Positions 1 to 21,457 of a stretch of DNA of 64,000 bases are shown here, piece after piece (positions within the stretch are counted from its first letter, which is position 1; each line of letters begins with the position of its first letter). The notes under the pieces are model-generated. The model saw only the letters and a program-made list of their open reading frames with translations. It ran no database searches and was not told the DNA's origin. A program made the translations under genes and the position numbers. This DNA comes from Candidatus Aenigmatarchaeota archaeon (lineage in GTDB: Archaea > Aenigmatarchaeota > Aenigmatarchaeia > CG10238-14 > SpSt-28), in assembly GCA_038742305.1 (NCBI GenBank), contig JAVYKI010000002.1, forward strand, positions 1,013-65,012. Direction: 5' to 3'.

Positions 1-3000
1 GCCTTTTCTATTAATTTTTCAATTTCTTCTTTAGATACTTCTTCAACATATTTTGGCATTTTAATTTTTCTTTTTTCAAATTCTTTTCTTATTCTTGGTT
101 CTATTCCTTCTAAATAAATATCTACTATATCAAAAGCACCTTGCATTAGTTTGCTTTCTGCAAGCTTAAGCTCTGTTTCTATATCAAACACATCAACTTC
201 ATGCTTTTTCAAAACTTCTAAGTAGAACTTTAATTCTTCAATTTTTCTATCTCTTTTATCATATTCTTCTAGTTCTTTATCACTTAACCTTGTTACTTGA
301 TGCAAAATTGGCCTAAAGCTTACAAAGTATGGCCTTCCTCTATTGTATTCTGCATTTACTATCATTCCAGTACCAACATTAGCTTTTACAATAGAACTTA
401 CAAATTCTTCCCCATACTTCATTTTTATTCTTTCCAAATCTCCTTCATACCTTGTTCTCATTTGAATTTCAGTACCAATATTTGCTCTAATTTCCCCAAC
501 AAAATCACTCAAAACTTGGCTAATCAATATTAAGCCAATTCCCCACTTTCTAAATTCTCTTACTCCTCTTTCTAAAGCAATAAATCCTTTACCGCTTCCT
601 CCAAATTTTGGCAATAATCTATGGACTTCATCATAAACTATTAAAGCTCTCAATTCTTTGCTTTCTTCTAGTTGGGAATTAAATATTTCTTGAATTGTAT
701 TTGCAACGAAAATGTCAATTTCTTCTGGTTTTAGTTTATTAATTACAAAAATATAAATATTGCCTTTTGGATTTTCAATTATTTCTTTTAAGTTTATTTT
801 TTGATAGGGGCTTCTTATTATTTTTATTTTGCCACTAAATCCTCTTGCTTGTTTTTTACTCATTCCAAACTTTGTATATTCTTTTAGCATATAATTTTCT
901 TTACACTTTCTTAAAAATCCAGTCCATTGAGCTGTTGGGTCAAAAACAATAACATTTTTGCCTTTTAATAGCGCTTCTTCTGCAATTACCATAGCAGCAA
1001 TAGTTTTTCCGCTTCCTGTAGCTCCAGCAATCATTGTATGCATTTTTAAATCATCTAAATAAATAAAAGCTCTTCTAGCAGTTTCTGCAATATTTCCAAT
1101 AAATGCTGAATTTTCAGTAGCTTGAGGCAAAGTTGAAAAATCTATTGGAGTAGCAAACCTTTTCTGTTTTTCTTTTATTTTCAAATATCTTCTATAAAAT
1201 ATTATTGAAATTGCAGAGCTAGAAGCTATTAATATTGCAAATAACAATAATGTTTTTAGCTCTACTCCTAAAACTTTTCTTTCTAATAGCGGAATTTCTA
1301 CTGTTACAAAAGCACTAGCTACAGCTTCTTGCTTAATGTCTTCAGTTAAATAAGTCGCTACTGCCTTTACTAAATATCTTTTTTCTGGAATGTTTTCTGG
1401 AACTTTTAGTGAAACAATTTTTGATAGAGAAGTTTCTACTGCTAAACTTTCTTCTACTTTGCTTATTTCTATCATCGCATCACTATCTATTAAAGCTACA
1501 GTTAAATTAACATCAACTCTTTTAGTTTTACCTAAATTGTAAAGTATTACTTCAGCTCTTAAATAATCTCCAGGCTTAACTTTATCTTGAAGCAAAGATA
1601 TTTTTAGATCTAAAAGCTTTAATTCGGAAGGTAAAACTTTTATAGTTATTGGAATGTTAAAGCTTTCGTTTTCTACTATTATTTTTGCATATCCTCTATA
1701 TGTTCTAACTTCTGCATCTTTTGGAATTTCTATGAAAAGTTCAAAATAGTTTGCAGATTTTTTATTTAGCAATATTCTTTTATTATAAACTTTTATAAAT
1801 TGAGAAGCTTCTCCATATAGCATTATTTCTGCATAAACATCTTTCTGCTTGTTGTTTGCAATATTTATTTTCTTAATATCTTTTTCTCCTTGCTTTAATT
1901 CAACATATATTTCTTCAGTTTTAATTTCAACTTTTTCTGTTAATTCTTTTAATGCTTCTTGTATTTTAGAATAATCTATGCTAGGTCTTTCATAATAACT
2001 TGGTGCTGGAGCTGGTGGAACAGAAGTTACTGGACAAGCACCACAATCAATAGAACAGCTTCTACAATCTTCATACAAACTATCACAAATATTATCTCCA
2101 CAAACTACTGCTTCAGCCAACAAAAATGCTGAAGAGGAATTTAATTCTATGTAAGCTTTACTTCTTATTAAATCTATTGTTGGAATTAATTCTATCCAAT
2201 TGCTTTCACAACTTCTATTTTCCAAATTCCAATTACTACACTTGTAAATTCTTAAATTACTAACTTTTATTATTGAGCTAGAATATTCTGAAATATCAAG
2301 TTCAAGCCTTAATTTATCGTAAGTAAAGTTTGGTTCTATTGCAAAAGCAAAAAACCTATTTCTTATATTTGAAACGTTTGGAATTAGAACGTTGAATACA
2401 TCTACTTTAACAAAATTAATAGTAGTAGAATTAATGCTAGCATTGTAATAAATAGCATCATGGTTTTCAATTTTTACTTTTACATCATATTTTCCTGCAA
2501 AAATAGAAGCATTAATTGTTGCGTTTTCATCAGGAACTAATAAATATTCTTTTTCTTTGCTTATTGGATTTAGTAATTCTAAGCTCAACTTTATTAATTT
2601 TTCATCTACAGTTTTTGAAAATGAAATAATACTAACTTTTTCTCCAGCTCTTAATAACTTTTCTTCTATTTTTGAATTGTTGCTCCTATCTCTTGCAAAA
2701 ACTTTTATTGTATAGTCTCCTTTTTCTTCTGGAAATATAATTGATTTGTAAACATTATTTTCTAAATAATAGTTTAGATTAGTTTCTGTTCCGTTTGGAT
2801 AAATTATAAATAGATAAACTTCTTGTATTTCATCATTATCTTCAACTAAAAACTCAACAGTATTATTTTTATTTATTTCTAGTTCTTTTGTTAAAATTGT
2901 TATGTTTGGGCTAATATTATCTATTACTTTTATAATTTGAGGAATTACTTGATAAGAAGTAAAGTTTAAGTAAGAAGCTTCTACAATTAAATCGTTGTAA

Positions 3001-6000
3001 AGCTTTGTAATAGGAACTAAGCAAGAAATGTTGAAAGAATTTGTAATGTTTGTTATTAAGCATTCTTTATTGCTCAACAAAACTCTAAAGCTTATGTTTT
3101 CAGTTATTTCATTATTTTCAAAATAAGCTTTTAAGCTAATGTTTAAAATTTGGTTTGGATAAACTTCTATTAAGTTTATTGGCTCTAAAACTATTAATGT
3201 AAAGTTAACTATAGTAATGTTGAAAATTATAGTTTTTGAAATGTTTAAAGTTTGATTAAATAAAGTAATGTTTTCTAAATAATTTCCTTCTTTAGTTAAA
3301 TTGTAATAAACTGGAATGCTTATTTCTTGAAGCTTTTGCAAAAATACTTCGTTTTCTACTTTTAAGTTTTCTGAAGAATTAATTTTTAATAGTAAATCGT
3401 TGTTTGCAATACTTTTAATAGTTAAATTAGTTAAAAATCCATAACCTTTACCTTTTTGCAATTCAAAATATTCATTTACTAAAAAGCTATAATTGTTTAA
3501 AACATTCACTCTTAAATAAACATACTTTTCAATTCCTTCTGAACTGCTTAACCTTAAAGTTCCCGCATAGCTGTTTGCACTATATCCAAAAGGTATTGTT
3601 ACATTTATTTCTATTTCCTTGCTTTCTCCAGGCATTAAAGTTCCTATAAACGGATTAAATTCTGGGTTAAATTCATAGCATATGGTTCCTAAAATGCATT
3701 CAGCTCTTATATTGCTTACTGGGTCTGTACCAGTAGATTCTATTAAGAATCTAATAGTATATTTTTGGCCGTGATGAGCATCTATCGGCAATGGGTCGTA
3801 TACTTCTAATCTTGCTTCTTTTTTAATTCCTTCAGCAATTACATATGCACCGCTTTGCAAAGTAGTATTTGCTTCTACAAACTTGTAAAGCTTGTTAACT
3901 TTGCTTGGCAACTGTATCCAGTTGTAACAAGTTTTTTCGTAAAAACTATAATCAGAACAATAAATTATTTTTAAATTATCTTCTATTGCACCAACTAATT
4001 GAGCTTCTTCTGGCTTATAATAAATTCTTATAGTTGAGTTAAAGCTTAATGGTAATAAGATTCCAAATCCTCCTAATGGCTTGTAAAGGTTAACTTCCGT
4101 AGAATAAATTTTATCGTATTTAATGAAATCGTTTGGTAAATCTAAAGTGCTTAAGTTATATATTTTTATTTTTGCTTTATCACTTTCTATTAATAAATCA
4201 TAAATTCTTTGATGCAGGCTTAAGTTTTTATATCCGTAAATATTTTCAAACTGCAAAATTTGATTAGTACCATTTCTGTAAAAAGTAAAGTTTAAGTTAA
4301 TTGGCTCATGTAATGCATTAGTAATGTTTACCCAAACATACTTCAAAATAAATACTTCAAAGTAATCTTCTAAAATTAGTGTGTTATTTGTTGTATCGTT
4401 TATGTAAAATATTAAATCGTAATCGTTTGGTTCTAAACTTGTTAACGTAATTTCCCAAGTTAAATTGTTTTCTGTTGTTAATTCAAAATATTGGTTTAAT
4501 TGCTTTACATGCATTAAAACTTTGTCTATTGCAACGTTATCTGTTAAATTAAGCTTTATTGCTACATTGCTTGGATATTCTACGCTTGGAATTTCTTTTG
4601 AAATTAAAGTTGGTTTAGTTACGTCTTTATAGTATAAAGCATTTATTTCTGTTTTTTGAACTGAAACATCATAAGCAATATAATAAGCTGTTAGCGTTAA
4701 GTTGTGCCATCTCCCATCTTCTAATTTTGGCAAGCTACAATTAATTAACCAATAAGCATTTTCTACTCTTAAATTGTTTATTTTGCATTCTTTATTATCT
4801 ACAAAAACTGAAAAGTTCAAATCTTGAGTTATGTATTCATCAACTAATTTAAAGCTAGCATTTATTTCTATGCTTTCGTTTTCCAAAACATTTAAGTATG
4901 GATTAATTTTATTAATTGTTAGCTCTGCAGGATAAACTTCAATTTTAATTGGCAATTTTCTAGTTCCTAAAATATTTTCATAAATAGTTAAGTTACCTTC
5001 GTAAAAGCTTAAATAATTTGGTGCAGTAATATTTGCAAAAACTTGGAATGTTTCTGCTGGATTTAGTTGTTTATAAGTTTCTGTTAAGCTTAATATATCT
5101 GTAACATTTCCTTCTAATGATAAACTACTAAATGTTAATATTTTATTTCCAACATTAGTAATGTTTAGAATGTTTTTAGTATAGTTTTTGCCTGCAATTA
5201 ATTTAATTGTAATGTTTTCTTTATCTGTAACATATCTATAATCTGCTGGAACTATAACTTGTAGTTCAAAGCTTGTTGAATTATCTATGCTTGTAATGTT
5301 TATTATTGGATAATAGTATCCATCTGAAAATCCTAGAGGCAAGCTAATAGTTAAAGTAATATTTCTAATTTCTCCTGCTGGAAAACTAGAAATAAAGCTC
5401 GGACTAAAGCTAACATATTGACATAACGTTGATTCTCTTATGCATTCAAAGCTTATGTTTCTTACTTCTGCATTTCCTTTTGAATAAATTGTAAAATTAA
5501 CTGAATAGCTTGAATTATGGCTTACTACAATGCTTGTTGGATAGTAAGTCAAGTTTATAATTCTTGTTGGCAAAACATTAACTTCTATTGTTGATGCTGA
5601 ATATGCTGTGCTTGAGCTTCCATCTGCATTATTCCAATTTACATATGGCCTAAACGAATATGTGTTTGGTAAAGTTTTTTCTGGAATTGTTACGTTTAAT
5701 AAACAGTAAACTGTTGTATTAGGATTAATAGAAGAAATGTTGCAAGATGTTATTATCCAGCTTGTTCCTCCTGGAGGTAAGGAAGTTAAAGAAACATTGT
5801 ATGCAGTAACAGTATCGTTTAAATTAGATATAGAAAAGTTTATTGAAATAGTTTTCGAATCTTCTTGAGTTATTCCGCTAACTTCGAAATAGTTATTAAT
5901 TGGAGATAAGCTCAATTGAGCTTTTGCAAAAGCTGTAAAATTAAAAGTTAAAGTTCTGCATTTATTACCAGTATCGCAAGCTGTTAAATTAGCTAAATAT

Positions 6001-9000
6001 AAACCTTCTATTGGAGGATAATAATTACAAGTTATTGTTCCATAGGTTAATGAATTTCCTTGAGCGCAAATTAAGGAATCTAAAGTTGAATTCGGTAAAG
6101 TAACGTTTAAATAAACTATTGCTAATTGATTTTGATCGTCATAGAAATAAGCACTAAATGCTTGCAACTTATTAATTTCAATTTTTTCGCTATATGCTAA
6201 ATTGTTGATATACGGAGCTACATCAACTATATGCCAATAAACTAAAGTATAGTTTAAAGTTGGATTTGCAGAATTGTTGCTAATAGTTATGTTTAAACCT
6301 AAATCTACTGAAACATAATAACCATTTTGCCAAAGCTTTATCTGATTGCTAGATTGCTTATCAACAAACAAATATGTTGGGTTATACAATTCACCATTTA
6401 CAACTTTATTTGTTTCAAAAATTCCATTTTCTATTGGATTAGTTGCTGATAATGAAGTATAACTTATGCTAAAGTTTAGAGGAACATTTCCAATGTTTTT
6501 AATAGTTATATTTCCAAGCAGTCCAGCTTCATTTAATCCATAAGTTTCTTCTATTCGGTCAACTTTTGTCCCATTCCTTGAAAAAACTTCCATTATCCAT
6601 CTTGAATCTATTGGAACAGTAACATTTATTTCTATTTCTTTTCTCCTTTCATCTGGATAACCTAAATTGCTAGTTACATTTATTATTCCTCTGTATAATC
6701 CAGGATCTTGGCCTAACGGAATGTTTATTGTTAAAGTAAAACTTTGATAACTTCCATCATCTATGCTTTGCCAATAGTTTGGACTAATTGTTATCCATTC
6801 TTTCGGCAAGTTAATTTCTGTATAATTAACCCAAACATCTTGTAAAGGAGCATTTCCAGTATTGTTTATTGTTATAATTATTGAAAAGCTTTGATTGTGC
6901 TGAATAGTTTGAGTAATGTTATACGTGCTTAGTTCTATTTGAGGATTGCCAACAACTGTAACATATTGTTTATTAGAAAAAATTATTGAAGATTTTTGCT
7001 GCTTGTTATTTATCCAGCTAGCATTGTAAACTTGAGTGTAAGTTCTTGGTTGAGTGCCTGCGGGAATTGTTATGTTGAAAGTTATATTTATTTCACTTTC
7101 TGGCAAAATTTCTGGAATCGGAGTTGCATTAATTATTGAAAATGGACCTGAATATTTAGTTATAGCTAAATTATGAATTGTTCCTTTTCCAGTATTTTTA
7201 ACTGTTATGTTGAATTGCTCAATTTTATCTTCTGTTAAGCTAACATTAAAAACTGTTAAATTGTAAGCAATTATTTGAGCTGAAGTTCTTAAATCTTCTA
7301 AATAATAATTAAAGCTAAAGTTTGCTAATTCGTAAAATGCACTAGAATTAAATGCCGAAACATAAATTGTTTTATTTCCAGCTAATAATTCGCAATTAGT
7401 TCCTATTGTAAAGTTTTGCTCGCAATTATAGCCATAACAAGTTTTTGTAAGACCATCTATTGTAATATTTATTTGGCCTATAATTAATTCATTAGTATCT
7501 ATTCTAGTATAATTACCAACTTTTATAGTTGTAATAGCGCAGCTTGGATTGCTTACAAAATCTTGAATAACTTTATATTCTTTTGTTAAATTAGTTGGTG
7601 CCCAAATTTTTATGTTGCTTGAATTTTCTCCATAAATTCCTTGATAATTTGTTATATTAACTTTTACGTAATGAATTCCTAAGGATGGAGAATTAAACTT
7701 AATTAAATAATTTCCCTGTTCATCTGTATTATTTGAAATTAAAAGGTTATTATCGAAATAAAGCTCTGTTAAGTTATTTATTAAGGGTAAATTATCTGGC
7801 AATAAAATTGCTTTTCCATAGAAAGAAGTTGAATTGTAGATTTTGTTGGAAGGATTTAATTCTATAAATATTTTCTTAACTTCAAAATAATAACTTAAGT
7901 TAATATTATTAGCAATTATTCCATTATTTGAAATTCCGCTAATGCTTACATTTAAATTATGGCTTCCCAAGTTTAAAGGAGCATTAAAAGTTTCTGAAGT
8001 TCTCCATTTGTTTAAAGTAGAATCAAAAACTAATGTGTAATTATTTCCATTTATAGTTAAATTGAAATTTCCTTGATTAACATCAAAATAGCTTGAACCA
8101 TTAAATTCCCTTATTCTTAAAGTTAAATAATAAGTTTCATTTGGATTAAGAATGTTATCTTGTTGATTATGAGAATCTAATAAAGTTAATTGGTCAAAGG
8201 TTAAATTTCTTACTTCTATTAAAATTGAATTTTCTCCATAAATTCCTTGATAATTTGTTATGTTAACTTTTATTTTATGAATTCCTAAAATACTGGATGC
8301 ATTTATTTGGCAAGAATATTCTCCATAATTATTTGTTGCACAACTTCCATTAAACACATTATCTTGATAAACAGAAACATTTTCATTACTAACATTTAAA
8401 TTATCTGGCAATAAAATTGCTTTTCCATAAACATTTATTGCATCGTTTGGATTAGCAATTGTAGAATTTAAATTTATTGTTATATTAATGGATTTAACAA
8501 AAAATGTTATATTTTTTTCTAGCGATTCGTTAGAAACAGAATAGATTATAACTGTAAAGTTATATTCACCAATAGAAGGCACAGAAGTATTGAAGTAAAA
8601 ATATTCTCTTTTGTCTATAGAAACCAAAGGAGTTAAACTAGAGTTTTCCCAAGTTAAAGCATTACCGTTAACTCTGAAAGTTGCGTTTGCTGTTGTTTTA
8701 TTACTTCCTGAAATAAAATTAAAATCACTTGGCAAAATTATATCAAATCTCAAAATATTTTCTAAAATTGATTGTACTGAAAATGTGAAAAGTTGATTTT
8801 CCTTGTTTGCTTGAAGAATTTTAACTTGTGTTGGGGGATTAGATTCTACACTAACAACTCCTATATAAGCTTTTAAAGGTAAGTAATCAGTATTATTGCT
8901 ACAGCTTGTACAACTACTTTTACTAATTAAATCATATGGGATATCACAAATTCCATTATTGTCATTATCTTGACATGTTTTAGAATAATTCTCAAAAGTT

Positions 9001-11072
9001 CCTAAATAAACATTACCGCCAATATAATTACCTTTAATAATATTTTCTGTTTGAGTTAAAGTAGTATTCCAAAAGTTTTGATAAATTGGAGGAATAAAGT
9101 TAGCTATATATTTCGTTTTAAAGAAATTATTGTAAATTAAATTATTTGAAGATGAAGATAAACTAATTGAAAAGCTCATAAGCTTAAAGATATTTGAAAA
9201 AATGTTTGTTGAATTAGATGATATCAAATATATTCCAGTAGAAATTCCTCCTGAACCTCCCGAACCTAAAAAACCACCACTTCCTCCAGCTCCACCAGTT
9301 AAATTACTTATTGTATTCGAATAAATTGTGTTATTTTGAGAATTTTGAAGGTATATTCCAGCAGAAATTCCTCCTGAACCTCCAGAACCTTGATAACCAC
9401 CAGTTCCTCCACTCATTCCTTTAAGTCCGGAAATTGTTAAATTATAAATTATTGAATTAGTAACATTTATTAAAGCTATTCCAGCAGAAATTCCTCCTGA
9501 ACCTCCTGAACCTTGATAACCACCGATTTGAATACTTCCTCCAATTAATATTGGAGGATTAGTTGAATTTATAGTAAAGTTAGCTATTATTATATTAGAT
9601 TTATTGAAAAAGTATAAAATTGGATTATTATCAAAATAGTTTAATTTTGAAGTATCTACAATGTTGTTGTTTAATAAGGTTATTTCATTATTGTAAGAAT
9701 TGGAATCTGAAATCTATATTCCAGCAGAAATTCCTCCTGAACCTCCCGAACCAAAATCACCACCACTTCCTCCAGCTCCACCAGTTAAATTACTTATTGT
9801 ATTCGAATAAATTGTGTTATTTTGAGAATTTTGAAGGTATATTCCAGCAGAAATTCCTCCTGAACCTCCAGAACCTTGATAACCACCACTTCCTCCAGCT
9901 CCACCAGTTAAATTACTTATTGTATTATTTCTTAACAAGTTATAACTACTTTTTACAAGAATTCCAATAGCATTACCTCCATTAAAAGATCCAAAAATAT
10001 AATTTATAATGTTGTTTTCTATAATTGAAAAATTAGCTTGAGAATCTAAAAAAATACCAGTTTGCCATTTTCTAATTATACAATTTTTAATAGTAACATT
10101 TTCAGAATTAACATATATTCCATACAAATTTTTTGAAGAGATATCATTAAGAGCAAAATTACCTTCTATTATTTTTCCATTACAATCCAAAGTTACATTT
10201 TCAGAAGTTATATTAATTCCTGTAGTTAAATTCAAATTTAAAATATCTTTGCTTAAAGTGTAATAACCGGGTTTATTTATTAATAAAACATAAATTAAGC
10301 TTGAGTTCAATCCACTTATTCCATTAGAATCTGTTGTATTAATTGTTATATTATAAATTCCTAAATCTGAAGGAACAGAAAAAGTATAACTATAATTTCC
10401 ATTAGAATCAGTAGTTACATTACTTAAAAAGTTATCATCTAAGTAAATGCTTATATTTATGTTTGGAACTGTTAAATTATCTGGCAATAAAATTGCTTTT
10501 CCGTAAACATTTATTGCATCTCCTGGATTAACAATTGTAGAATTTAAATTAATTGTTACAAAAATTTTTCGAACAATAACAGTAACATTTAATTCTTCAA
10601 TGCTTCCATTTTCATACAAAGCTTTTAAAGTAAAGTTATAATATCCAACATCTGGAACAGAAGAATTAAACCAAAAATTTTTTGTTTCATTAGCTAAAAT
10701 TAGCCCAGAAAAATTTTGCCAAACTAAAGTATTTCCATAAACAAAAAAATCAGAAAAAGCATTTGTTCCGTTGCTATTAGAAATAAAACTAAAGCCTGAA
10801 GGTAAAGTAATATTAAGCTGAGTAATATTTAAAGAAAGAGTATTGTTAACAGTAAAGTTAAAAAGCTGATTAGGTAAATTTGCTTGAACTGCTTGAGGAT
10901 ATGTAATAGAAAAAGGAGGGGTATGAACTTTAACTTCTAAGCTGAAAACGTTTATAAAAAAAGCTAAAGTTAATATTAATGTAAACCATAATTTTTTACT
11001 ATTCATATCTTTCATTAATGTTTCGAAGAATAAAAGCAAAGCTTTTAAATAAGCAAAAAATTTAAAAAGCAA
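1..11072 (-). CDS. Giant secreted/surface protein, partial (runs off the left edge). It has an N-terminal signal peptide, a beta-helix region with Gly-rich GGAGGSGG..GSGGSGGISAGI repeats, many Asn/Thr-rich Ig-like modules, a TM helix and a C-terminal cytoplasmic HerA/FtsK-like P-loop ATPase domain. An in-frame TAG sits at 9714-9716.
   Basis: The ORF track gives 9714..11072 (452 aa, MLFKFF...LILTLAFFINVFS signal peptide). I translated the minus strand by hand below the TAG and it continues in the same frame (codon starts at positions congruent to 2 mod 3), with the same Gly-rich repeat motifs. No other M-initiated ORF is listed anywhere in 534..8610 on either strand, consistent with a single open frame to position 1. 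Near the 3' end: the hydrophobic segment LLLFAILIASSSAISIIF, then Walker A HTMIAGATGSGKT (~1000-1040), Walker B LIVYDEVHRL, and a tail ...EKRKIKMPKYVEEVSKEEIEKLIEKA leaving the window. NxT/S sequons are abundant. Confidence 0.6.
7560..7700 (-). repeat. A ~70-140 bp intragenic duplicate of 8190..8290 (ttttctccataaattccttgataatttgttat(a/g)ttaactttta...atgaattcctaa).
   Basis: By-eye alignment; both copies lie in the giant ORF frame. Confidence 0.5.
8395..8480 (-). repeat. Ig-like module repeat (YGKAILLPDN...). It is ~90% identical to 10472..10557, and a partial copy lies at ~7797-7830.
   Basis: Shared string ttatctggcaataaaattgcttttcc(a/g)taaacatttattgcatc...ttgtagaatttaaatt. Confidence 0.6.
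9229..9402 (-). repeat. Intragenic repeat copy 1 (~175 bp). It is near-identical to 9714..9887 and encodes Gly-rich beta-helix turns (GGAGGSGG..GSGGSGGISAGIY).
   Basis: I aligned the two copies by eye at an offset of 485 bp and found only a handful of mismatches. The 26-nt core ccagcagaaattcctcctgaacctcc recurs at ~9231, 9361, 9481, 9721 and 9841, a period of about 120-130 bp. Confidence 0.7.
9714..9887 (-). repeat. Intragenic repeat copy 2. Its first codon is the in-frame TAG, where copy 1 has TAT (Tyr).
   Basis: Direct comparison of 9229-9240 (aatatattccag) with 9711-9723 (atctatattccag). Confidence 0.7.
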
Positions 11073-11172: not shown

Positions 11173-11469
11173 TTGATAATTATTATTATGGATAACAGAG
11201 AAATATTAAAAGAAAGAATTAAATTTGTTCTCGATTTATTAAAAGAAGAAAGAAAAGAGCAAAAAATTATCGGTAGAAAAGAAAAGAACAAAGAAAAAAT
11301 TTTGGAGTTTTTGAAGCAAAATAAATTTGCTACTTTAGAAGATATTGCAAAACTTTTAAACATTTCAATTAATAGAGCTTCAGAATATTTGAACGAATTA
11401 TTCAAAGAGCAAAAAGTTACTTACATAAGAAAAAACAAGAAAAAATACTTTAAGTTGTTAAATGGTTAG
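11173..11469 (+). CDS. Small K/E-rich winged-helix (HTH) DNA-binding protein. The true start may be the MDNREIL at ~11188.
   Basis: The C-terminal ...FATLEDIAKLLNISINRASEYLNELFKEQKVTYIRKNKKKYFKLL looks like a wHTH. It overlaps the downstream ATPase gene by 8 nt. Confidence 0.5.
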   Translation: MIIIIMDNREILKERIKFVLDLLKEERKEQKIIGRKEKNKEKILEFLKQNKFATLEDIAKLLNISINRASEYLNELFKEQKVTYIRKNKKKYFKLLNG

Positions 11470-12205
11470 AATAATAGGAATAGTAAGCGGAAAAGGAGGA
11501 ACAGGAAAAACTTTAATAGCAACCAACCTTTCTTATGCAATTTCTAATTTAGGCTTTAAAACTTTATTAATAGATTTTAACTTTACAACTCCCCACATTC
11601 CAATAATTTTAAATTCGAAGCCATCTTTTACTCTTAACGATTTTTTAGAAGAAAGGGCAGATTTTTACGAAATTTTAAATCCGCACTTAAACTTTTTCTT
11701 TGTTTCCCCTTCAACTAGCCTGCAGGATTTAAAAAATTTTAAAATAGAAAATATTGAAAAGCTTAAAGAAAAGCTAAGCTATTTTGATTATGTAATAATA
11801 GATTCTGCTCCAGGTTTTGGAAGAGAAGCAACTTATTCTTTTCTTTTTTCAGATGAAATATTAATAATTGCAAATCCAAATTTATCTTCTTTGTTCGATT
11901 CTTTAAAGTGCTATGAATTAGCCAAAAGATTAGATAAAAAAGTTTTAGGAATTTTAATAAATAGATATACTAAAGATTCAGCCCTAACAATTCAAGATTT
12001 TAAAAATGTTTTCGAAATACCAATACTAGGAATAATTGAAGAAAGTAAAATTGCAAAGCAGTTAGATTTAAAGAGGAAAATGCTTTACGATTTAGATAAA
12101 AACTTTCAAAATCAAATTCTTGAAGTTGCTTATAAAATTTGTAATCTCGAAATTAAAAAAGAAAGCTTTTTGGAAAAAATAAGAAGGTTTTTCAAAATTA
12201 TCTAG
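11462..12205 (+). CDS. MinD/ParA-family (deviant Walker A) ATPase.
   Basis: GIVSGKGGTGKTLIATNLS near the N-terminus and DYVIIDSAPG later. The gene ends with a TAG stop at 12203-12205. Confidence 0.8.
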   Translation: MVRIIGIVSGKGGTGKTLIATNLSYAISNLGFKTLLIDFNFTTPHIPIILNSKPSFTLNDFLEERADFYEILNPHLNFFFVSPSTSLQDLKNFKIENIEKLKEKLSYFDYVIIDSAPGFGREATYSFLFSDEILIIANPNLSSLFDSLKCYELAKRLDKKVLGILINRYTKDSALTIQDFKNVFEIPILGIIEESKIAKQLDLKRKMLYDLDKNFQNQILEVAYKICNLEIKKESFLEKIRRFFKII

Positions 12206-12800
12206 CACCTTCAGCTTCCCTTTCTATTCTTTCTTTTTCTTTTAATGCAAAGCTTTTAGAAATATCATTATTAGCTGCAGCAATAATTTCTTCTGCAAGA
12301 ACTTCTGACATTTTTGTAAAGTTAACTTTTCTTCTATAGCAAGAATTAACAATATTCCTTAAAGCTATATCTACTCTTCTTTGAGGGCTAACTATTACTG
12401 CACTCCTAGCAATTATTCCACCGACTTGATAAGAAACAGCTTCTTCTAATGGAGCAGAATTTTCTATTGCTCTTACTAAAACTTCAATCGGATTTCTTTT
12501 AGTTCTTTTTTCAATTATTTCAAAAGCTTCTTTAACAATTTTAATTATTTTTTCAGTTTTTCCTGCACAATGAGCAGAGCTAATTAAATGCTTTTTACCT
12601 TTATGCCCAGGTCCAAACATCTTGTTTATTAATCTTTCAACAATATTCATGTTTGCTTTCCCGAACCTTTTTTGGCTAAATCTTCCATAAGTTTTTGGAA
12701 TAACGCAAGGCTTAAGGTTTATATATCTTTTTAGCCCTAAATCTTTTACTTCAACATTCCAATCCCATTTTCCAAAAAGTTTTAATTCTTCTACAGCCAT
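12198..12800 (-). CDS. rps7: 30S ribosomal protein S7 (uS7).
   Basis: Length, sequence and position directly downstream of S12, in the conserved archaeal rpo/str-like block. Confidence 0.8.
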   Translation of the reverse strand: MAVEELKLFGKWDWNVEVKDLGLKRYINLKPCVIPKTYGRFSQKRFGKANMNIVERLINKMFGPGHKGKKHLISSAHCAGKTEKIIKIVKEAFEIIEKRTKRNPIEVLVRAIENSAPLEEAVSYQVGGIIARSAVIVSPQRRVDIALRNIVNSCYRRKVNFTKMSEVLAEEIIAAANNDISKSFALKEKERIEREAEGAR

Positions 12801-13222
12801 TATCTAGCAGGCTTTTGCTTTTTACCTTTTCTTATTGCATCCAAAGAAACTCCATTAACAGCTATAACTTTCCATCTTACTCCCCACATAGAACCTATTG
12901 GTCCTTTTTGACCGCCACCTAAAGGTTCAACTATTACTTCATCATGCTCATTTATAAAGTTTATACTTCCGCTTTTTGGAACAAAAGCAGTTAACTGTCT
13001 TCCATTTTTAACTAATTGAACTCTTACACATTTAATTAATCCAGAATAAGGCCTTTTCTGCTCTACTATTCTCTTTTCAATTACTATTCCTCTAGCTTGT
13101 GGAGCACCTTCTAATGGATCTTTTTTCCATAAGCCTAAAACTCTATTTTTAAACTTAAAAGAGCTCCATCTAAACTTTTTCCTTCTTTTTATTAATATTC
13201 TTGCAGCAAACTCTCCAGGCAT
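12800..13222 (-). CDS. rps12: 30S ribosomal protein S12 (uS12).
   Basis: ...[47 protein letters not shown]... is a typical S12 core. Confidence 0.85.
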
Positions 13223-13223
13223 A

Positions 13224-13631
13224 TTATATAATTTTTACATCATTTATTTTAAAGTTTCTTGAAAGTAAAGACTTATAAACTTCTAAGTTTCTTTTATTTC
13301 TACCTAAAACTAATCCTTTATACATTTTATTAACTTTTATTTCAATAATTTTTTTGCCATTATTATTCAAAATTCTATAGCTAATCATATAAGGAATTAA
13401 ATTTCTCAAAAATTCGTTTAAATCAGAAGAATATTCATAAACTTTTATTTCTTTGTTAAGCAATCTCTTCAAAATTTTAAGCATTGCAATGTTATACAAA
13501 GAGAACTTTGTTTTTTTATCTACAAGCAAATAAATTGTATTATTTTTAATTATACAATCTTTTATATTTGCATTTGTCAAATTTTCTACAAAATTTATTA
13601 TTCTTATTACTTCTTTATCAAACTCGATCAT
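13224..13631 (-). CDS. nusA: Archaeal NusA-like transcription factor (two KH domains, ~135 aa).
   Basis: Size and the KH-like [13 protein letters not shown], in the conserved position between rpl30e and rps12. Confidence 0.65.
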
Positions 13632-13887
13632 TTTTTATTACTATTACGCTTATAGGAAAAGGTTTTCCGCATAGTATTCCTAGCTCTATGCTTGTTCCAT
13701 TAAACTCTTTTATAAGATTTTTATTTCTTACAGCACTTATTATATCATTTTTCAAATCTTCTCTCATATTTTTTGCTATTATTACAAGCTTTGGTTCATA
13801 GTTTTTTAAATACTTGTAAGCTTTTCTGTATCCATATATTGCTTTATTTTCTTTTATTGCTTCTTTAACTATCTTTTCTATTTCCAT
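13618..13887 (-). CDS. rpl30e: 50S ribosomal protein L30e.
   Basis: An ~89-aa protein in the conserved slot between rpoA'' and nusA, with an L30e-like core. Confidence 0.7.
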
Positions 13888-14965
13888 TTTCCCTTAATGT
13901 TATTTCTACTGCTCCAGTTCCTATTGGAACAACATTTCCAATCATTAAGTTTTCAAAGCTGCTTTTTAATTCATCTTTTGCTCTTCTAACAGAAGCATTA
14001 ACAATGTTTTTAACTGTTTCTTCAAAGCCAGCTCTTGCAAGAATAGAATATTTTCTTCCAGCAACTCCATACCTTCCAATTGGGCTTATTGTACCATTAA
14101 AAGTCATAGTATCTGCAATTATAAATAAAAATCTTAAATTGACATCTAAACCTTGCTGTTGCAAAACTTTCATTACTTCCATTAAAAGCAAATTTCTAGC
14201 AGCCTCTATTCCCAAGACTTCAGCAACTTCATGAGGATTATTAGAAATTGTTCTTGTTTCGTCAACTTCTTCTATTTGCAAAACTTCTTTTAAGTTTGAG
14301 CCAATAGTTTGAATTATCCAATCATCTTTTTCTTTATAAACTATAGCAGTTTCGATTCCTTTAATTCCTTTAAATACCATGCTTCCTATTCTATCTCTAA
14401 GCCTTCTCAACTCTTTTATGCTATATTCTTTTCTAGGAATTATTTCAATTCTTTTTCCTTTTTTCTTTACAGAACCAAGCTTTATTTTTTCTTTTAGGAA
14501 TTCATAAACTTCTTCAAAATACTGTTCTTCGGGCTCAATTTCTAAAGAAAGCTCTGTAAGGTTTAAATAAATTCTGCTAACTTCTCCAATCTTTTTTTGA
14601 ATTAAAGAGCTTGCAACTCTATAAGCATCTTTTTCATTATTGTATTCTTTTTTTAAGTAAATTGTCATGCTTGGAGTAGAAATATCTTTTCTTGCATCAA
14701 AAAGCTCAATTAATCTTGGCAAACCTAAAGTAATTTTTATTCCTACAGCACCAGCAACATGGTATACTCTCATAGTTGCTTGAGTAGCAGGCTCGCTGAT
14801 GCTTTGAGCTGTTAAAATTCCAATAGCTTCTTGTGGCTCAAAAATAACTTTTTCATAAGCTTTTCTTACAGCTTCTTCTAATTTTTTCTTTTGCTCTTCG
14901 CTAAAATTATACTTTTTGCTAACTTTTTCTATTAACTCTTTTATTCTTATTGGTAGCTCAATCAT
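13865..14965 (-). CDS. rpoA2: DNA-directed RNA polymerase subunit A'' (C-terminal third of Rpb1).
   Basis: ...[26 protein letters not shown]... matches the trigger-loop region. The start overlaps the upstream rpo ORF by 4 nt. Confidence 0.85.
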
Positions 14966-17900
14966 ATTTCTTTTGCAATTTCTTCTACATTAATATCTCC
15001 ACCTTCAACTTTATATGGATCAATTAAATCTTCTCCAGCAATAAATTGAATTATATTTCCACTAGAATCTCTTATTGTTCCGTCATATTCAATTTTCAAA
15101 TCTTGTAAAGCTCCAATAAACCTCCTTTCCAAATAACCGCTATGCCTAGTTTTAACACTTTTATCCATAAGAGATTCTCTAGAATTAATCATTTCAAAGT
15201 ATAATTCTATTGGCTTTAATCCTTCTTTAAATCCTCTTGGAACAAATCCTTTTGCTTCTAAACTAATATCATTCCTTTCAAAGTGTGGAAAGCTTCTTAA
15301 GTAATAACCAATTTCTATTCTTCCTCCCATAACTTTTTCTTGACCGATCATTCCGGAAATTTGTATTATATTTACTAAGCTACCCCTTGCTCCAGAAGCT
15401 GCCATAACAAAAACTTCACTCTCTCTTTTAATTTCTGGCAAAACTAACTTAGAAACTTCTGTTAAAACTTCATTAACTATTCCATTAATTAATTGCTCCA
15501 AAGTTTCTTTTTCAGTCCTTCCTATTAAAGCTTCCAATTTTCCTTCTCTAAACTTTTTAATTAATTCATTAACTTTATCATTTGCTTTTTTAACTAACTT
15601 TTCAATTTCACTTTTAACTTTTTGAGAAATTGAATAATCAGCAAAAGAAATGCTAAATCCATGATAAAGCAAAAAGTTCATTCCAAGTTTTGAAACATTT
15701 TCAATAAACCTTTTTGTATAGTGCTCTCCAAACAAAGTTAATATTCTGTTTAATAATTTTCCGTTTTCTCCAACAGCTTTTTTATCTATTGCTCCATTTA
15801 TTAACTTTCCATCTTTTATAACTACATAACCTTCTTTTTCATCAACAGAAGCTAATGAACCTTTGAATTCTAATGAAATTTTTGGTAAGAAGCAGCTAAA
15901 TATTTCTTTTCCAGTTAAGTATTCTTTTCTCGGAATTTCTACGTTTAAATCTATTTCTCTTATAAGCTGTACAGCATCTTCATACTTTATTTTTCTTTCT
16001 CCATAAGTTAGCAAGAATAATCCAGAAATTTGATCGTGCAATAAAGCAATTATTGGACCTCCATACCTCGGGCTTCTAATATGCTTTATTACACTCATTA
16101 ATATTTCTGCTTCAGTCATAGCTTCTATTGATTGAGGAACGTGCAAATTCATTTCATCCCCATCAAAATCTGCATTGTATGGAATAGTTGTGCACAAGTT
16201 AATTCTAAAAGTTTTTCCGCTAGTAACTCTAACTCTATGAGCCATCATGCTCATTCTATGCAAGCTTGGCTGCCTATTAAACAAAACTATATCTCCATTA
16301 AGCAAGTGCCTTTCAACAATCCAGCCAGGGGCAATTCTTTTAGCAATTTCTTCTTTATTTTTATCCATTATTTTTATTCTTGTTCCATCTGGAGCAATTA
16401 CATAATTTGCTCCAGGCCATTTTTCTCCATTCAAAATAAGCTTTCTAATTTCTTCAATATTTTCTTCATTAACTACTACTGGCACAGTTAATTCTATAGC
16501 TAAAATTTCTGGAACTCCAACTTCATCTATATCTAAATATGGATCTGGACTAATTACGCTTCTAGCAGAAAAGTTTGTTCTTTTTCCTAGCAAGTTATAT
16601 CTAAACCTTCCTTCTTTTGTTTCTAATCTTTGAGAAAGAGTTCTTAAAACTCTTCCACTTCTATGCCTAGCAGGAGGAATTCCGCTTAACTCATTATCGT
16701 AAAACGTTGCAACATGATATTGTAATAATTCCCACAAATCTTTAATAATAAATTCTGGAGCACCAACTTCTAAAGTTTCTTTAAACCTTTCGTTTATTCT
16801 AACAATATCAACTAATTTATGAGTTAAATCGTCTTCACTTCTTTCTCCAGTTTCCAAAACTATAGAAGGCCTAACTGTAACTGGAGGAATTAGCATTACG
16901 CTTAATATAAACCATTCAGGCCTTACTCTTATACCAATTTTTTTCAGCTCTTCATCTTCGATAGAAGCTAAAAATTCTCTTAGCCATTCTCTATCAACTT
17001 CTTTATCATCAATTTTAAAAGTATAAGGCCTTATAAATTCAATTTTTGGCTGTTTTGCTTTGCAATGAGGACAAGTGGAAGGTAAAGATTTTAAGAATTC
17101 TTTAACTTTTGGCTTTTCTTCTTTTGTTAAAACTTTTTTACAGTTTTTGCAAACAGCTCTTAAAATAGTGTAAATATGCCTAACAAACAAAGGATGTATA
17201 ACCGGCTTAGCTAATTCTATATGTCCAAAGTGCCCAGGACAAGTTGCATATGTTCCAGCGCAAGTTCTACATCTTATTCCAGGGTCAACAGTTCCTAATC
17301 TTGGGTCCATTATTCCGCCTTCAACAGGATAACCTTCTTCATCATAAACATCAATTTTATTAATTTTTGCAACAGACATTTTCTTAATCATTTCAGGACT
17401 TAAAACGCTAAATTCAATGCTTATAACTCTTCCTAAGTTTTTATCTACAATTAATTTTGGATAAATGTGCATTGAAATAAGCTCTTGCAATAATAATTTA
17501 AATCCATAGCTCATTTCAACTAATACTACTTCACTACTATCATCACAAACATTACACCATAGTCTATTTCTTATTCTATCTTCATAAGCAATTAATCCGC
17601 ATCTCGCACAAACTGGAATTAATGTTTTATCGGAATCAAATCTTTCCTTTAAAGTAATTGCAGCACCATGAGCAATTAGTACATCCTTTTCCATTTCTCC
17701 TAATCTTAATCCACCTTCTTTTATTCTTCCTTCTGTTGGCTGCCTTGTTAATAATGTTACAGGCCCTCTAGTTCTTGCGTGTATTTTGTTAGAAACTAAA
17801 TGGTCTAATTTCATGTAAAATCCGCTTCCAATTAATATTCTAGCTTCATATTTTTTACCTGTTCTTGGGTCGTACATTACTTCTCTTCCATCTTCGCTAA

Positions 17901-19236
17901 ACCCAAGCTCTTTTAACATTTTAACTAATTCTTCTTCACTCATTCCTTCAAAAGCAGTGGCATCTATAAATTCTCCCTTTATTGCAGCAATTTTTCCAGC
18001 AACTATTTCTAATAATTGACCAACAGTCATTCTAGATGGAATGCTGTGGGGATTAAAAATTATATCTGGAACAATTCCGCTTTCTGTAAATGGCATATCT
18101 TCTTGTTTAACTAATAAACCAACGACTCCTTTTTGGCCATGCCTAGTTGCAAACTTATCTCCAATTTCCGGAACTTTTAAATCTCTTACAACAACCTTAA
18201 CCAATTTATTACCATCTAAAGTTGTAGTAATATAAACTCTATCTACAATACCTTTATCTCTATGCCTTAATTCTATCGAAGTTTCTCTTAAGTTTTCTGG
18301 AGAAATTATGAATTGAGTTGTTGTTCCAAGAAATCTTAACGGCGAAGTTCTGCCGATTAAAACTTGTCCTCCCTCTACTCTTGTTTCTGGAGGAACTATT
18401 CCATCAACATCTAAATGCTTATATGCATCTTCCCCTCTATATCCTTTAATTCCTGGCATTGGAATTCCTATTACATCTTCTTGTCCAGAAGGATATTTCT
18501 TTTCTTCAGCTTCATAAGTTCTAAACATGTAGCTCCAGAACAATCCTCTTTCTACGCTAGATTTATTTAATACAATAGCATCTTGCATTGCATAAGGATG
18601 AGAAATTATTGCAATTACAACATTATTACCTATAGGATGAGTATCAAAAGGAAAAGTTTCGTATGCAACAGTTCTAACTAATGGTATTTGAGTATATAAG
18701 CCAATGTTTGCCTTAGAATCTGCTCTAGTTTTATAAGCTAAATTATAAATTCCAATAGCTTGTCCACTCATTTTTGCACCATAGTTTATTCTATCCCCTC
18801 TATTATGTTCTACAAAAGGAATTAGAGAAGCATGCAACCCTAAAGTTATTGCTGGATGAATTTCTATATGAGTATGTTTTTCAGTTGCGTCTGGATATAA
18901 AGAAATATAAGCATTTTCTTCTTCTTCTGCATCCAAAAATTCTATTATTCCTTCTTTAACTAAATCGCTAAACTTTATTTTTCCATTTTTCAATTCTTCA
19001 ATCTTTTTAATTAAATCTTTATATCTTTCTCTTACAATTGCAGGCCTTCTAATTCTTCCAGAGCCAGTATTTATTCTAACTTCATTCTTAAATTCTAAAA
19101 CAGCAACATTTACTTGATATGATATTTTTCCACTTCTCCTTAATTCTCTTATTTTTTCAAATATCTTTTCTGGGCTAGAAGTGTATCCTAAAAATTCTCC
19201 ATCCAAATAAACTTTATATTTAGCCTTCATTTTCAA
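14962..19236 (-). CDS. rpoB1-rpoA1: Fused RNA polymerase subunit B' (RpoB C-terminal part) and subunit A' (Rpb1 N-terminal part), a single 1424-aa ORF.
   Basis: N-terminal half: ...[44 protein letters not shown]...[21 protein letters not shown] (RpoB C-terminus). It is followed without a stop by [51 protein letters not shown]...[29 protein letters not shown] (RpoA' zinc site). I checked the junction DNA at ~17400-17520 and found no stop. Confidence 0.75.
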
Positions 19237-20734
19237 TATATTTTATTATTTCTTCTTTTATTTTATCTCTTTCTTCATCCGGAATTCCAAAGGTAACTTC
19301 GCTAAATATGGCTAAATGCTTTCTTAGCCCAATAGTTGGACCTTCTGGAGTTTCTGCAATACAAAGCTTTCCATAATGAGTTGGATGCAATTCTCTAGCT
19401 TCAAAATGCTCTTGAGTAGTTTTTAATGGCGAACTAACAACTCTCATATGAGTAACGCTTTTATTTAAATTAGCCCTTTCTAATCTTTGACATGTTCCAG
19501 TTCTATTTCCAATCCATGTTCCAACAGCCATTGCGGATTGTATCATATTAGTTACATAATTTGATTCAATAACAGCATGTAATGGAGGCAACTTTTTTCT
19601 TCTAGCAAGCTTTTGGAAATTAAAAAGCATTCTATTAATTACTCCTTGCTTGCCCATTAAAATTGTTCTAAAAAGTATTTCGAAAAGTTCTCCAGCTAAT
19701 CTTACTCTTTTGTTTGCATAATGGTCAATATCATCTTGCTCTTCTTTTCCTATCGCAACTTTTATCATTCTTTCAACAATTTTGGCTAAAAATATTGCTT
19801 TATTTATTCTGTCTTTTTTAGTTTGTCCAACATGCAATAAAAAGTACTTATCTAGTAAAGTTTCAGCCCTTTCAATTCTTAGTTTTTTCTGAGGAATTTT
19901 CAAATATTTACCTATTTCGTCTAGTGCTTCTTCTTGAGTTAAAACAGGATATTCGTAAAGGTTAATTAAAAATTCTTCTTGAACTTCTTTATCTTGACTT
20001 ATAGTATTTAATAAAACTTCATCATTTTCCAACCCAAGAGCTTTAAGCAAAATAACAACTGGAAAATCATGTAAAGCGGAAAAAGTTGTTAAAACAATTC
20101 CATCCTTTTTTAATTCAAACAAATGCTTAACTATGTAACCTTCTTTTTCAGAATTTATTCTGCAATTAACAACTACATTATTTGTATTAACTTTTCTTAT
20201 TATTGGCTTGTTTGGAGCCAGTTCTTCAATTAAAATTAAATTTCTTTCAGTTCCGTTAATTATAAAATATCCTCCAGGATCATCTGGATCTTCTCTTGCT
20301 TTTATTAATTCTTCTCTGCTCATTCTTGATAAAGGACAAATTTTAGATTTTACCATAACTGGCAAATCACCAAAATAAACTTCTATAGGATCGCTTTTTA
20401 CTCCACCAACTTCAGTAACAACTTTTAAAAACATTGGAGTAGAATAAGTTAAATTTCTAATTCTGCATTCGTAAGGCAATAATGGATTTGAAGGTGTTCT
20501 TTGAGAGCCATCTGCTTCAATTAAAGTCGGATAATCATTAACTCTTCCATCTATAAAGTGAATTTTTACATTTCCAAGTTCAGGAATTTCTGGCTTAACT
20601 GTTCCAATGCTTTTAACAAGTTTAGGAAACTTTCTTTCAACAAAATCATTATAAGAATCTATTTGATATCTAACCCATCCTTTTTCAGCTATGTAAGCTT
20701 TCAATAAATCTGCAAATATTAAATTTAGGTTCAT
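19220..20734 (-). CDS. rpoB2: DNA-directed RNA polymerase subunit B'' (RpoB N-terminal part).
   Basis: [33 protein letters not shown]..., 504 aa, typical archaeal split rpoB. Confidence 0.85.
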
Positions 20735-20994
20735 TTCTCAACAACCACTCTATAATATAATGATTTAAAACCCTCAAAATTTCTTTCTATTTCTATTACA
20801 TCTCCAACTCTTGCTCCAAGCTTTATTACTACAGGATCTGTTGCCAATATTTTCGGAAGCTTATCCAAAGTAACATTATACTTTTTAAGCAAGGCTTCTT
20901 TTTCTTCTTCGCTTAATATTCTATGTTTTGGAACTAGTTTATGTTTAAAAATGTCTATTTCCTTCATAATATTTTCTTTTTTGTGCATGCTCAT
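20731..20994 (-). CDS. rpoH: RNA polymerase subunit H (Rpb5-like). The start is placed at the internal MSMHKK, because the upstream 38 codons of the listed ORF look like run-on.
   Basis: ...[52 protein letters not shown]... is the RpoH signature. Confidence 0.75.
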
Positions 20995-21022
20995 ATAATA
21001 TCTTAAAAAATATAAATACTTT

Positions 21023-21457
21023 ATGGTTAAGCTAGTTAGTGAAATTGTTGCAGTAGTTCTTATTGTTGCAGTTACTGTTGGAATAGCATTACTGGTTGGA
21101 TACTTCATTTCAAATTATATAAGTAAAAGACAAGCAGAAATTTCTTCTTATTGTTTTCTTGATAGAATAAATAATAAAGTTTATGCAAAAAAAATAAACG
21201 ATACTCATATATCTTTAAATTTTGAATATAATGTAGGTACACTTAAACTAGAAAACCTTTCTATAATAGTATATTGTAATGGAGAAGAGATCTTTAATTA
21301 CAAACACGATCAACCTTGTAATGTAGGATGTTTTATTTCTAAGGATGTAGAGACAAATTGTACAGATGGATTAAGAATAATGGTTTTTGCGAAATGTGAG
21401 AATGCTTTTTCAAACATTCTCGGATGTGGTAACGAGATTAGCTGTTTTTCTCAATAA
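21023..21457 (+). CDS. Hypothetical membrane-anchored protein (N-terminal TM/signal anchor) with a Cys-containing extracellular domain.
   Basis: [33 protein letters not shown]... is a hydrophobic N-terminus. There is no recognizable family. Confidence 0.4.

Follow-up and report, generated by a model that had tools for sequence, protein, structure and literature searches.

An in-frame fusion of the RNA polymerase subunits B' and A' in Candidatus Aenigmatarchaeota, conserved in its clade and recurrent in the phylum

Are the two largest subunits of RNA polymerase (RNAP) joined into one chain in some archaea, or does a reading frame that says so come from an assembly error, or encode two proteins after all? 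The question is raised by a stretch of 64,000 nucleotides, hereafter the window, from contig JAVYKI010000002.1 of a Candidatus Aenigmatarchaeota archaeon (assembly GCA_038742305.1, positions 1,013 to 65,012 of the forward strand). There rpoB' and rpoA', for the C-terminal half of subunit B and the N-terminal part of subunit A, lie in a single open reading frame (ORF). The original prediction had placed an in-frame fusion of 1424 amino acids (aa) at 14962-19236. These coordinates are exact; the strand, which is minus, had been left unstated, and the length needs a small correction. The ORF is uninterrupted over 1424 codons from a TTG at 19236, and the ATG at 19230 is the likely true start. It yields 1422 aa, the size of MEM0480709.1, a 100% identical NCBI protein from a Candidatus Aenigmatarchaeota metagenome-assembled genome (MAG; contig of 87.7 kb). 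The parts of the fused gene are the following.

14962..19236, minus strand: fused rpoB'-rpoA' ORF, stop codon at 14962-14964 (Pfam, NCBIfam and ORF list)
17446..19230, minus strand: B' (Rpo2C) moiety, aa 3-597, Rpb2 domains 4-7, with GEMEKD and RHGQKG motifs (Pfam, TIGR03670, motif positions)
17431..17445, minus strand: junction linker DKNLG, aa 598-602 (profile ends, alignment to PDB chains and 3qqc_A, model)
14965..17430, minus strand: A' (Rpo1N) moiety, aa 603-1424, Rpb1 domains 1-5, with zinc motifs CRTC, CPGHFGH, CKNC and CPHC (Pfam, NF006336, TIGR02390)
16156..16176, minus strand: catalytic NADFDGD, aa 1021-1027, intact (motif position)

An open frame of 4.3 kb (1424 codons) in a window of 26.6% GC is not due to chance; the two alternative frames around the junction contain many stops. 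Pfam placed Rpb2 domains 4, 5, 6 and 7 at aa 9-596 and Rpb1 domains 1-5 at aa 603-1404. With the archaeal B' profile TIGR03670 (rpoB_arch) the ORF scored 830.5 bits (cut-off 811), aa 9-599 covering profile positions 1-597 of 599. With the two subunit A' profiles, aa 603-1423 scored 1093 bits for NF006336 (cut-off 819, entering at profile position 8) and 1082 bits for TIGR02390 (cut-off 1042.55). By profile the first part is therefore an archaeal B', but one without a stop, hence not a free-standing chain ending after the C-terminal clamp strand. The second part passes the A' cut-offs and has the clamp zinc motifs and NADFDGD, all intact, but has no start codon of its own. Only 3-6 residues separate the ends of the B' and A' profiles (Pfam, NCBIfam), and an intein or inserted domain at the junction was thus ruled out. 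The linker DKNLG takes the place of the C-terminal tail of B' with its stop codon, and of the initial ~7 residues of A', start methionine included. The junction peptide quoted in the original prediction was found at aa 581-620, with the junction itself at 17431-17448. As had been claimed, the junction region in the window contains zero stops, and no ATG, GTG or TTG codon between M589 and M616.

The fusion was recovered in other assemblies. In a Logan assembly of run ERR14821858, the fused protein is identical; 15 of 10,269 nt differ, and all 7 differences in the ORF are synonymous. A contig from ENA (L081) carries the same operon and the same B'-A' fusion, with a protein 82% identical in amino acids. 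Between the window and this relative, the ratio of non-synonymous to synonymous divergence (dN/dS, Nei-Gojobori) was 0.108 over the full gene. For the 80 codons about the junction, dN was 0.117, and for the bodies of B' and A' the values were 0.128 and 0.114, meaning that the junction is as constrained as the rest of the gene. With the entire ORF as query, at least 120 protein clusters (clustering at 90% identity) were obtained, down to 51% identity. All have both Rpb2 and Rpb1 domains, and those with a name come almost all from Aenigmatarchaeota. All 106 junctions found by motif scan read through, and an alignment of 120 sequences showed in-frame length variation only, with 10-13 residues between the conserved YPK and IEF. 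We conclude that B' and A' are truly fused, as the original prediction would have it, and that the fusion is conserved and maintained by purifying selection. One ORF, conserved in relatives and under purifying selection, is also what is expected of naturally tethered catalytic subunits of the bacterial beta::beta' type.

A fused query ranks fused hits higher, and the search was repeated with the A' moiety alone. The 11 best clusters, which share at least 66% identity and form the window's clade, were again all fused. Among the next 109 (56-62% identity), 10 were fused and 99 were ordinary A' proteins of 827-849 aa. Unfused A' thus predominates outside the window's clade, and our first reading of the whole-ORF search was rejected as a sampling artefact. 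We also scanned one genome per GTDB species, a scan that is pattern-limited and no census, and that returned mostly Iainarchaeota with separate genes, which served as outgroup. It gave 79 loci with both halves, 6 of them fused (four labelled Aenigmatarchaeota, L001 labelled Woesearchaeota and L008 'uncultured archaeon'). A B' stop, a spacer and a Met-initiated A' were seen in every locus of Iainarchaeota and other DPANN in the scan, as well as in several Aenigmatarchaeota. The fusion had been called unusual in archaea: this holds overall, the Iainarchaeota and other DPANN loci examined being unfused, but not within Aenigmatarchaeota, where it is common and recurrent. Four contigs with Iainarchaeota-like rpoB'-rpoA' operons (L017, L071, L073 and L074) were met in MAGs labelled Candidatus Falkowbacteria, Chloroflexota/Chloroflexi or Thaumarchaeota; these labels are likely due to binning contamination.

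The unfused junctions of Aenigmatarchaeota show how little separates the two states. The B' stop and A' start abut in an in-frame TAAATG (L004) or overlap in an ATGA (L050), or else a stop, 1-2 nt and an ATG follow each other, with GGAGG ahead (L044, L045, L052 and L054). In the fused sisters L006 and L007 the stop is simply missing. Since stop and start abut or overlap in unfused relatives, changes of 1-4 nt interconvert fused and split forms. A bootstrapped neighbour-joining (NJ) tree of concatenated B' and A' (1399 columns, 61 taxa) paired the fused P0062 with the unfused L048 (bootstrap 100), and nested the fused pair L006 and L007 (bootstrap 100) in an unfused clade (bootstrap 100). It also made L055, L056 and L063, which have an unsplit and unfused B, paraphyletic to a clade in which whole B is fused to A' (bootstrap 100 and 90). 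In the larger set of 241 taxa, we counted 20 maximal fused clades (sizes 28, 19, 17, 14, 14 and fewer), 31 unfused clades and an unfused root; Fitch parsimony required at least 17 changes of fusion state, to be read as an approximate figure.

Four architectures coexist in the phylum: [B''][B'][A'], [B''][B'A'], [B][A'] and [BA']. Unsplit B stands alone in L055, L056 and L063 and is joined to A' in chains of 1911-1930 aa elsewhere (P0038, P0093-P0120), so that the phylum is variable in the B''/B' split as well. A stop or frameshift in closely related genomes had been named as what would speak against the fusion. The outcome is mixed: the fusion is present throughout the nearest relatives (at least 66% identity, 11 of 11 clusters), while a stop is found in many of the more distant Aenigmatarchaeota, and these stops are genuine alternative states, not signs of error. 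We conclude that the fusion is recurrent and reversible, fixed in the window's clade, and not ancestral to the phylum.

The position of the joint in the enzyme was examined next. When the junction segment was aligned with archaeal and eukaryotic RNAP chains of the PDB, B/Rpb2 chains ended ~3 residues past aa 598 of the ORF, and residue 8 of A' fell on aa 605. This residue-level alignment confirms the junction as predicted. The top PDB sequence match was 3qqc_A, with an alignment unbroken through the joint (E 4.5e-58, one 1-residue gap). An AlphaFold2 model of aa 481-900, built with 45 homologues, had a predicted local distance difference test score (pLDDT) of 82-94 at the junction. There the chain forms a beta-hairpin in the clamp, passing from the final strand of B' through a turn of 4 residues into the initial strand of A'. 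Foldseek searches of the PDB with the modelled segment also gave 3qqc_A as best match (E 2e-30, template modelling (TM) score 0.76, root-mean-square deviation 3.4 Å over 365 columns). 3QQC is an engineered Pyrococcus furiosus clamp in which B 1053-1115, A' 3-318 and A'' 334-371 are joined by short linkers; it is soluble, correctly folded and binds Spt4/5 (PMC3094117). The natural fusion thus reproduces a joint that experiment has shown to be harmless to clamp folding. Because the B' and A' termini are adjacent, the fusion is mechanistically unsurprising.

The fused gene is flanked, all on the minus strand, by these genes.

20731..21108, minus strand: rpoH (Rpb5 C-terminal domain), ORF of 125 aa, where gene callers begin later (87 aa) (Pfam)
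19220..20734, minus strand: rpoB'' (Rpo2N), 504 aa, a separate gene whose 3' end overlaps the fused ORF start by 11 nt (Pfam Rpb2 domains 1-3; NF007175, 460.9 against a cut-off of 355)
13865..14965, minus strand: rpoA'' (Rpo1C), 366 aa, a separate gene whose ATG overlaps the TGA of the fused ORF (ATGA) (Pfam Rpb1 domain 5; TIGR02389)
13618-13887, minus strand: L30e (Pfam)
13224-13631, minus strand: NusA-like (Pfam; TIGR01952 nusA_arch, 1.9e-18, slightly under its cut-off)
12800-13222, minus strand: S12 (Pfam)
12198-12800, minus strand: S7 (Pfam)

This is the canonical order of an archaeal rpo operon, rpoH-B''-[B'A']-A''-L30e-NusA-S12-S7, with overlaps of 4-17 nt, and the same order was found in L081 and in the Logan contig (L082). 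The rpoA'' product matched TIGR02389 with 2e-111 and 372.5 bits, under its cut-off of 420.65. As B'' and A'' are encoded by genes of their own, rpoB is still split, and the composition B'' + B'A' + A'' proposed from the start stands; with the small subunits, these chains would make up the core enzyme. In rpoH the Rpb5 C-terminal domain lies at aa 51-122, the genes called in L082 and L081 are 87 and 77 aa long, and the true start is probably downstream of the first ATG. The 125-aa form of this gene also shares sequence with an ORF of 144 aa on the other strand (21023-21457). Beyond S7, the operon of L081 goes on into an EF-2 (elongation factor 2) gene with an intein (Intein_splicing and LAGLIDADG domains, 13015-16254); in the window S7 is instead adjoined by a ParA/MinD-like gene on the opposite strand (11462-12205).

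Which product does the fused frame give? The original prediction had pointed to internal initiation at the MIKKM methionines, M616 and M620, as something to look for, and one possibility is indeed that separate B' and A' are made, through a start at one of these or at a non-canonical codon, or through proteolysis of the linker. About 19% of the fused clusters have a Met in the linker region, 7 of 120 at the ancestral A' start, and the frequent reversion shows that the separate form works. Moreover, initiation here makes little use of Shine-Dalgarno (SD) sites: SD-like motifs precede only 1 of 45 window genes, the operon genes being joined by ATGA-type overlaps instead, and 0 of 15 ORFs in the close relatives L081 and L003, while the hot-spring Aenigmatarchaeota L044-L054 show clear GGAGG. 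A missing SD motif is thus no test of internal initiation and does not exclude it.

The sequence of the joint argues for the opposite. The window has a Gly at the ancestral start, 97 of the 120 fused clusters lack a Met throughout the linker region, and M616, the first candidate start after M589, is I, as M620 is L, in the 82% identical relative. These residues lie 13-17 positions inside the conserved A' N-terminus, a strand and a helix, and initiation at M616 would remove the first A' beta-strand, which pairs with the C-terminal strand of B'; a start at MIKKM is not supported. As for cleavage, a tight 4-residue hairpin turn modelled with high confidence makes a poor protease substrate. In bacteria, the tethered beta-beta' of Helicobacter functions as a single chain. 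We consider two separate products distinctly improbable, and a single tethered B'-A' polypeptide is very probably what the gene encodes.

Two other explanations concern the fused gene itself. A sequencing or assembly artefact, in which a missed stop or small indel joined two ordinary adjacent genes, would need little, as fused and unfused loci differ by only 1-4 nt. Many Aenigmatarchaeota MAGs carry a stop at the junction, and the singleton fused tips P0014, P0015, P0016, P0017, P0032, P0038 and P0062 could each be errors of this kind. For the window we give this explanation almost no credit. The identical protein, with synonymous differences only, was obtained in an independent assembly, every one of the 11 closest clusters is fused, and dN at the junction equals the gene-wide value. 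The A' start Met has, besides, been replaced (G or L for M), and the linker varies by in-frame substitutions and indels. The fused gene might otherwise be a decaying or redundant copy, with a functional unfused pair elsewhere in the genome, which is just as hard to believe: the dN/dS of 0.108 and the intact catalytic and zinc motifs point to a working gene, and it sits in the canonical single-copy rpo operon, with a gene order kept in relatives. Genomes of this group are generally small and their core genes rarely duplicated.

That the analysis spans 64 kb of an 87.7-kb contig, not the whole genome, leaves some room for such a second copy, and is one of several points that weigh against our conclusions. 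The window and the Logan contig may stem from related samples. The trees were built by NJ with p-distance-type corrections, and bootstrap values are low at several internal nodes, which makes the number of switches approximate, and some singleton fused or unfused MAG calls could be sequencing errors. That a polypeptide of ~160 kDa would be made, escape cleavage and be incorporated into RNAP is predicted from the sequence. As to the use of the fusion, SD usage sorted by fusion state (~15% vs 36% of ORFs) shows a weak trend, confounded by phylogeny and GC content; the frequent reversion argues against a strong selective advantage, and benefits for stoichiometry or re-initiation are speculative.

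With the single tethered polypeptide as the most probable product, the course of events is best read as follows. In an operon where the B' stop abuts or overlaps the A' start, loss of that stop gave rise to the fusion. In the clamp, the last B' beta-strand and the first A' beta-strand are antiparallel neighbours in any case, so that the linker needs to form only a hairpin turn and the rest of the enzyme can stay unchanged. The fusion state flipped many times in the phylum and became fixed in the window's clade, with subsequent loss of the ancestral A' start Met. Possible gains are a guaranteed 1:1 stoichiometry, and translation without re-initiation in a genome devoid of SD sites. The tether would be nearly equivalent in function to separate subunits, and hence nearly neutral or mildly beneficial. 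A stronger proposal, which we hold to be rather unlikely, is that the tether is adaptive in ultra-reduced, SD-less DPANN, where it would replace re-initiation, a lost assembly aid or both, fix the clamp at 1:1 and perhaps alter clamp dynamics. The lost assembly aid could be sought in Rpo6, for example, of which a C-terminally shortened form is described for Aenigmarchaeota (PMC13257274). If the tether were adaptive, fusion and fission should track the mode of initiation or the small-subunit repertoire, not drift.

A separate observation concerns the start of the window. A minus-strand frame with its first codon at 9713 stays open for at least 3237 aa and runs off the window start (1-9713). The same frame contains upstream an ORF of 452 aa with Beta_helix/NosD matches (9714-11072), with a single TAG (9714-9716) between the two. 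Exactly at the position of this TAG, the repeated motif GSGGSGGISAGI(Y/A)L carries Tyr or Ala, and a change from TAT to TAG is thereby suggested; TAG serves as stop in 3 other window genes. Taken together, the two frames resemble a single giant surface protein (more than 3,690 aa) in which this codon would be a nonsense mutation, a sequencing error or a site of read-through.

The B'-A' fusion is of interest beyond this locus as an archaeal counterpart of the tether of Helicobacter and Wolbachia, since it indicates that an RNAP of the archaeal-eukaryotic type tolerates a covalent link of its catalytic subunits at the clamp. It is a natural experiment repeated many times, and matched fused and unfused sister lineages lend themselves to comparison. 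The fusion can also serve as a ready template for making recombinant archaeal RNAP or clamps, and for the study of assembly order and stoichiometric control, both recently found critical in Methanococcus maripaludis (PMC13556214). For annotation, the Prokaryotic Genome Annotation Pipeline (PGAP) says "subunit A'" only, and the NCBIfam fusion models are bacterial only. Where a pipeline allows each protein a single family, RpoB can be counted as absent, which could skew completeness estimates and marker-gene phylogenies of DPANN; fused proteins had to be split for this very reason in PMC13473441. Work on the deep phylogeny of archaea has treated subunit splits and fusions as rare genomic changes (PMC5484517), a use for which the demonstrably homoplastic B'-A' fusion calls for caution.

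Our full-text literature search found no description of an archaeal B-A' fusion, nor did targeted reading of PMC5484517, PMC13473441, PMC13257274 and PMC13556214 turn one up. The archaeal B'-A' fusion is thus apparently undescribed so far, its sequences being public and annotated by PGAP as above. A search of representatives of 50% clusters, which merges the whole Aenigmatarchaeota fusion family into one representative and gives no lineage count, returned three further Rpb2-Rpb1 fusions (P0129, P0124 and P0192), unrelated to Aenigmatarchaeota. P0129 (1665 aa, whole Rpb2 and Rpb1 domains 1-2) occurs on 13 contigs of up to 79 kb, with the gene at 8001-12998 on L083/L084; by their neighbours (YqaJ, DOT1, GIY-YIG, DnaJ), these contigs look like giant virus. 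P0124 (2214 aa) and P0192 (2786 aa) combine whole Rpb2 and whole Rpb1 in one chain, on one Logan contig each.

Closer to the window, the whole-B-A' fusions of other Aenigmatarchaeota clades have the same junction and linker in the same phylum, but B is unsplit there, giving two large chains, BA' + A'', instead of B'' + B'A' + A''. The engineered clamp 3QQC, called rClamp (Martinez-Rucobo et al. 2011, PMC3094117), has the same joint, a C-terminal segment of B and the N-terminus of A' with a short linker. It is artificial, however, with 436 residues, Gly/Ala/Ser linkers and a segment of A'', whereas the window protein is natural and holds complete B' and A' bodies. The B'/B'' and A'/A'' splits and the A'-A'' fusion of Pacearchaeota belong to the same class of events, the repartition of catalytic subunits into chains. 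In PMC5484517, archaeal A'/A'' splits and the secondary A'-A'' fusion of Pacearchaeota are called rare, and DPANN lineages are already known to deviate in RNAP subunit partition. These events split or rejoin one subunit, whereas the B'-A' fusion joins two different subunits and is highly homoplastic.

The original prediction had named bacterial rpoB-rpoC fusions as the precedent, and rightly so: rpoB and rpoC are fused in Helicobacteraceae and Wolbachia (PMC7483510, in the passage citing Lane and Darst 2010 and Zakharova et al. 1999). With the bacterial fusion models NF007172 and NF011417, the window ORF scored 361.5 and 343.2 bits, far from the cut-offs of 5372 and 4632. Relatives of the bacteria with fused genes reportedly have overlapping, not fused, rpoB and rpoC, going by a paper title. 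The topology is the same in both domains of life, the C-terminus of the second-largest subunit being joined in frame to the N-terminus of the largest one, from adjacent operon genes, and both fusions are lineage-specific. The relation is analogous, not homologous. The enzyme of the window is of the archaeal-eukaryotic type, and its chain holds half of B and the N-terminal two-thirds of A, B and A being themselves split. Compared to the bacterial fusions, the Aenigmatarchaeota linker is much shorter (~5 residues), and the fusion state flips repeatedly within the phylum.

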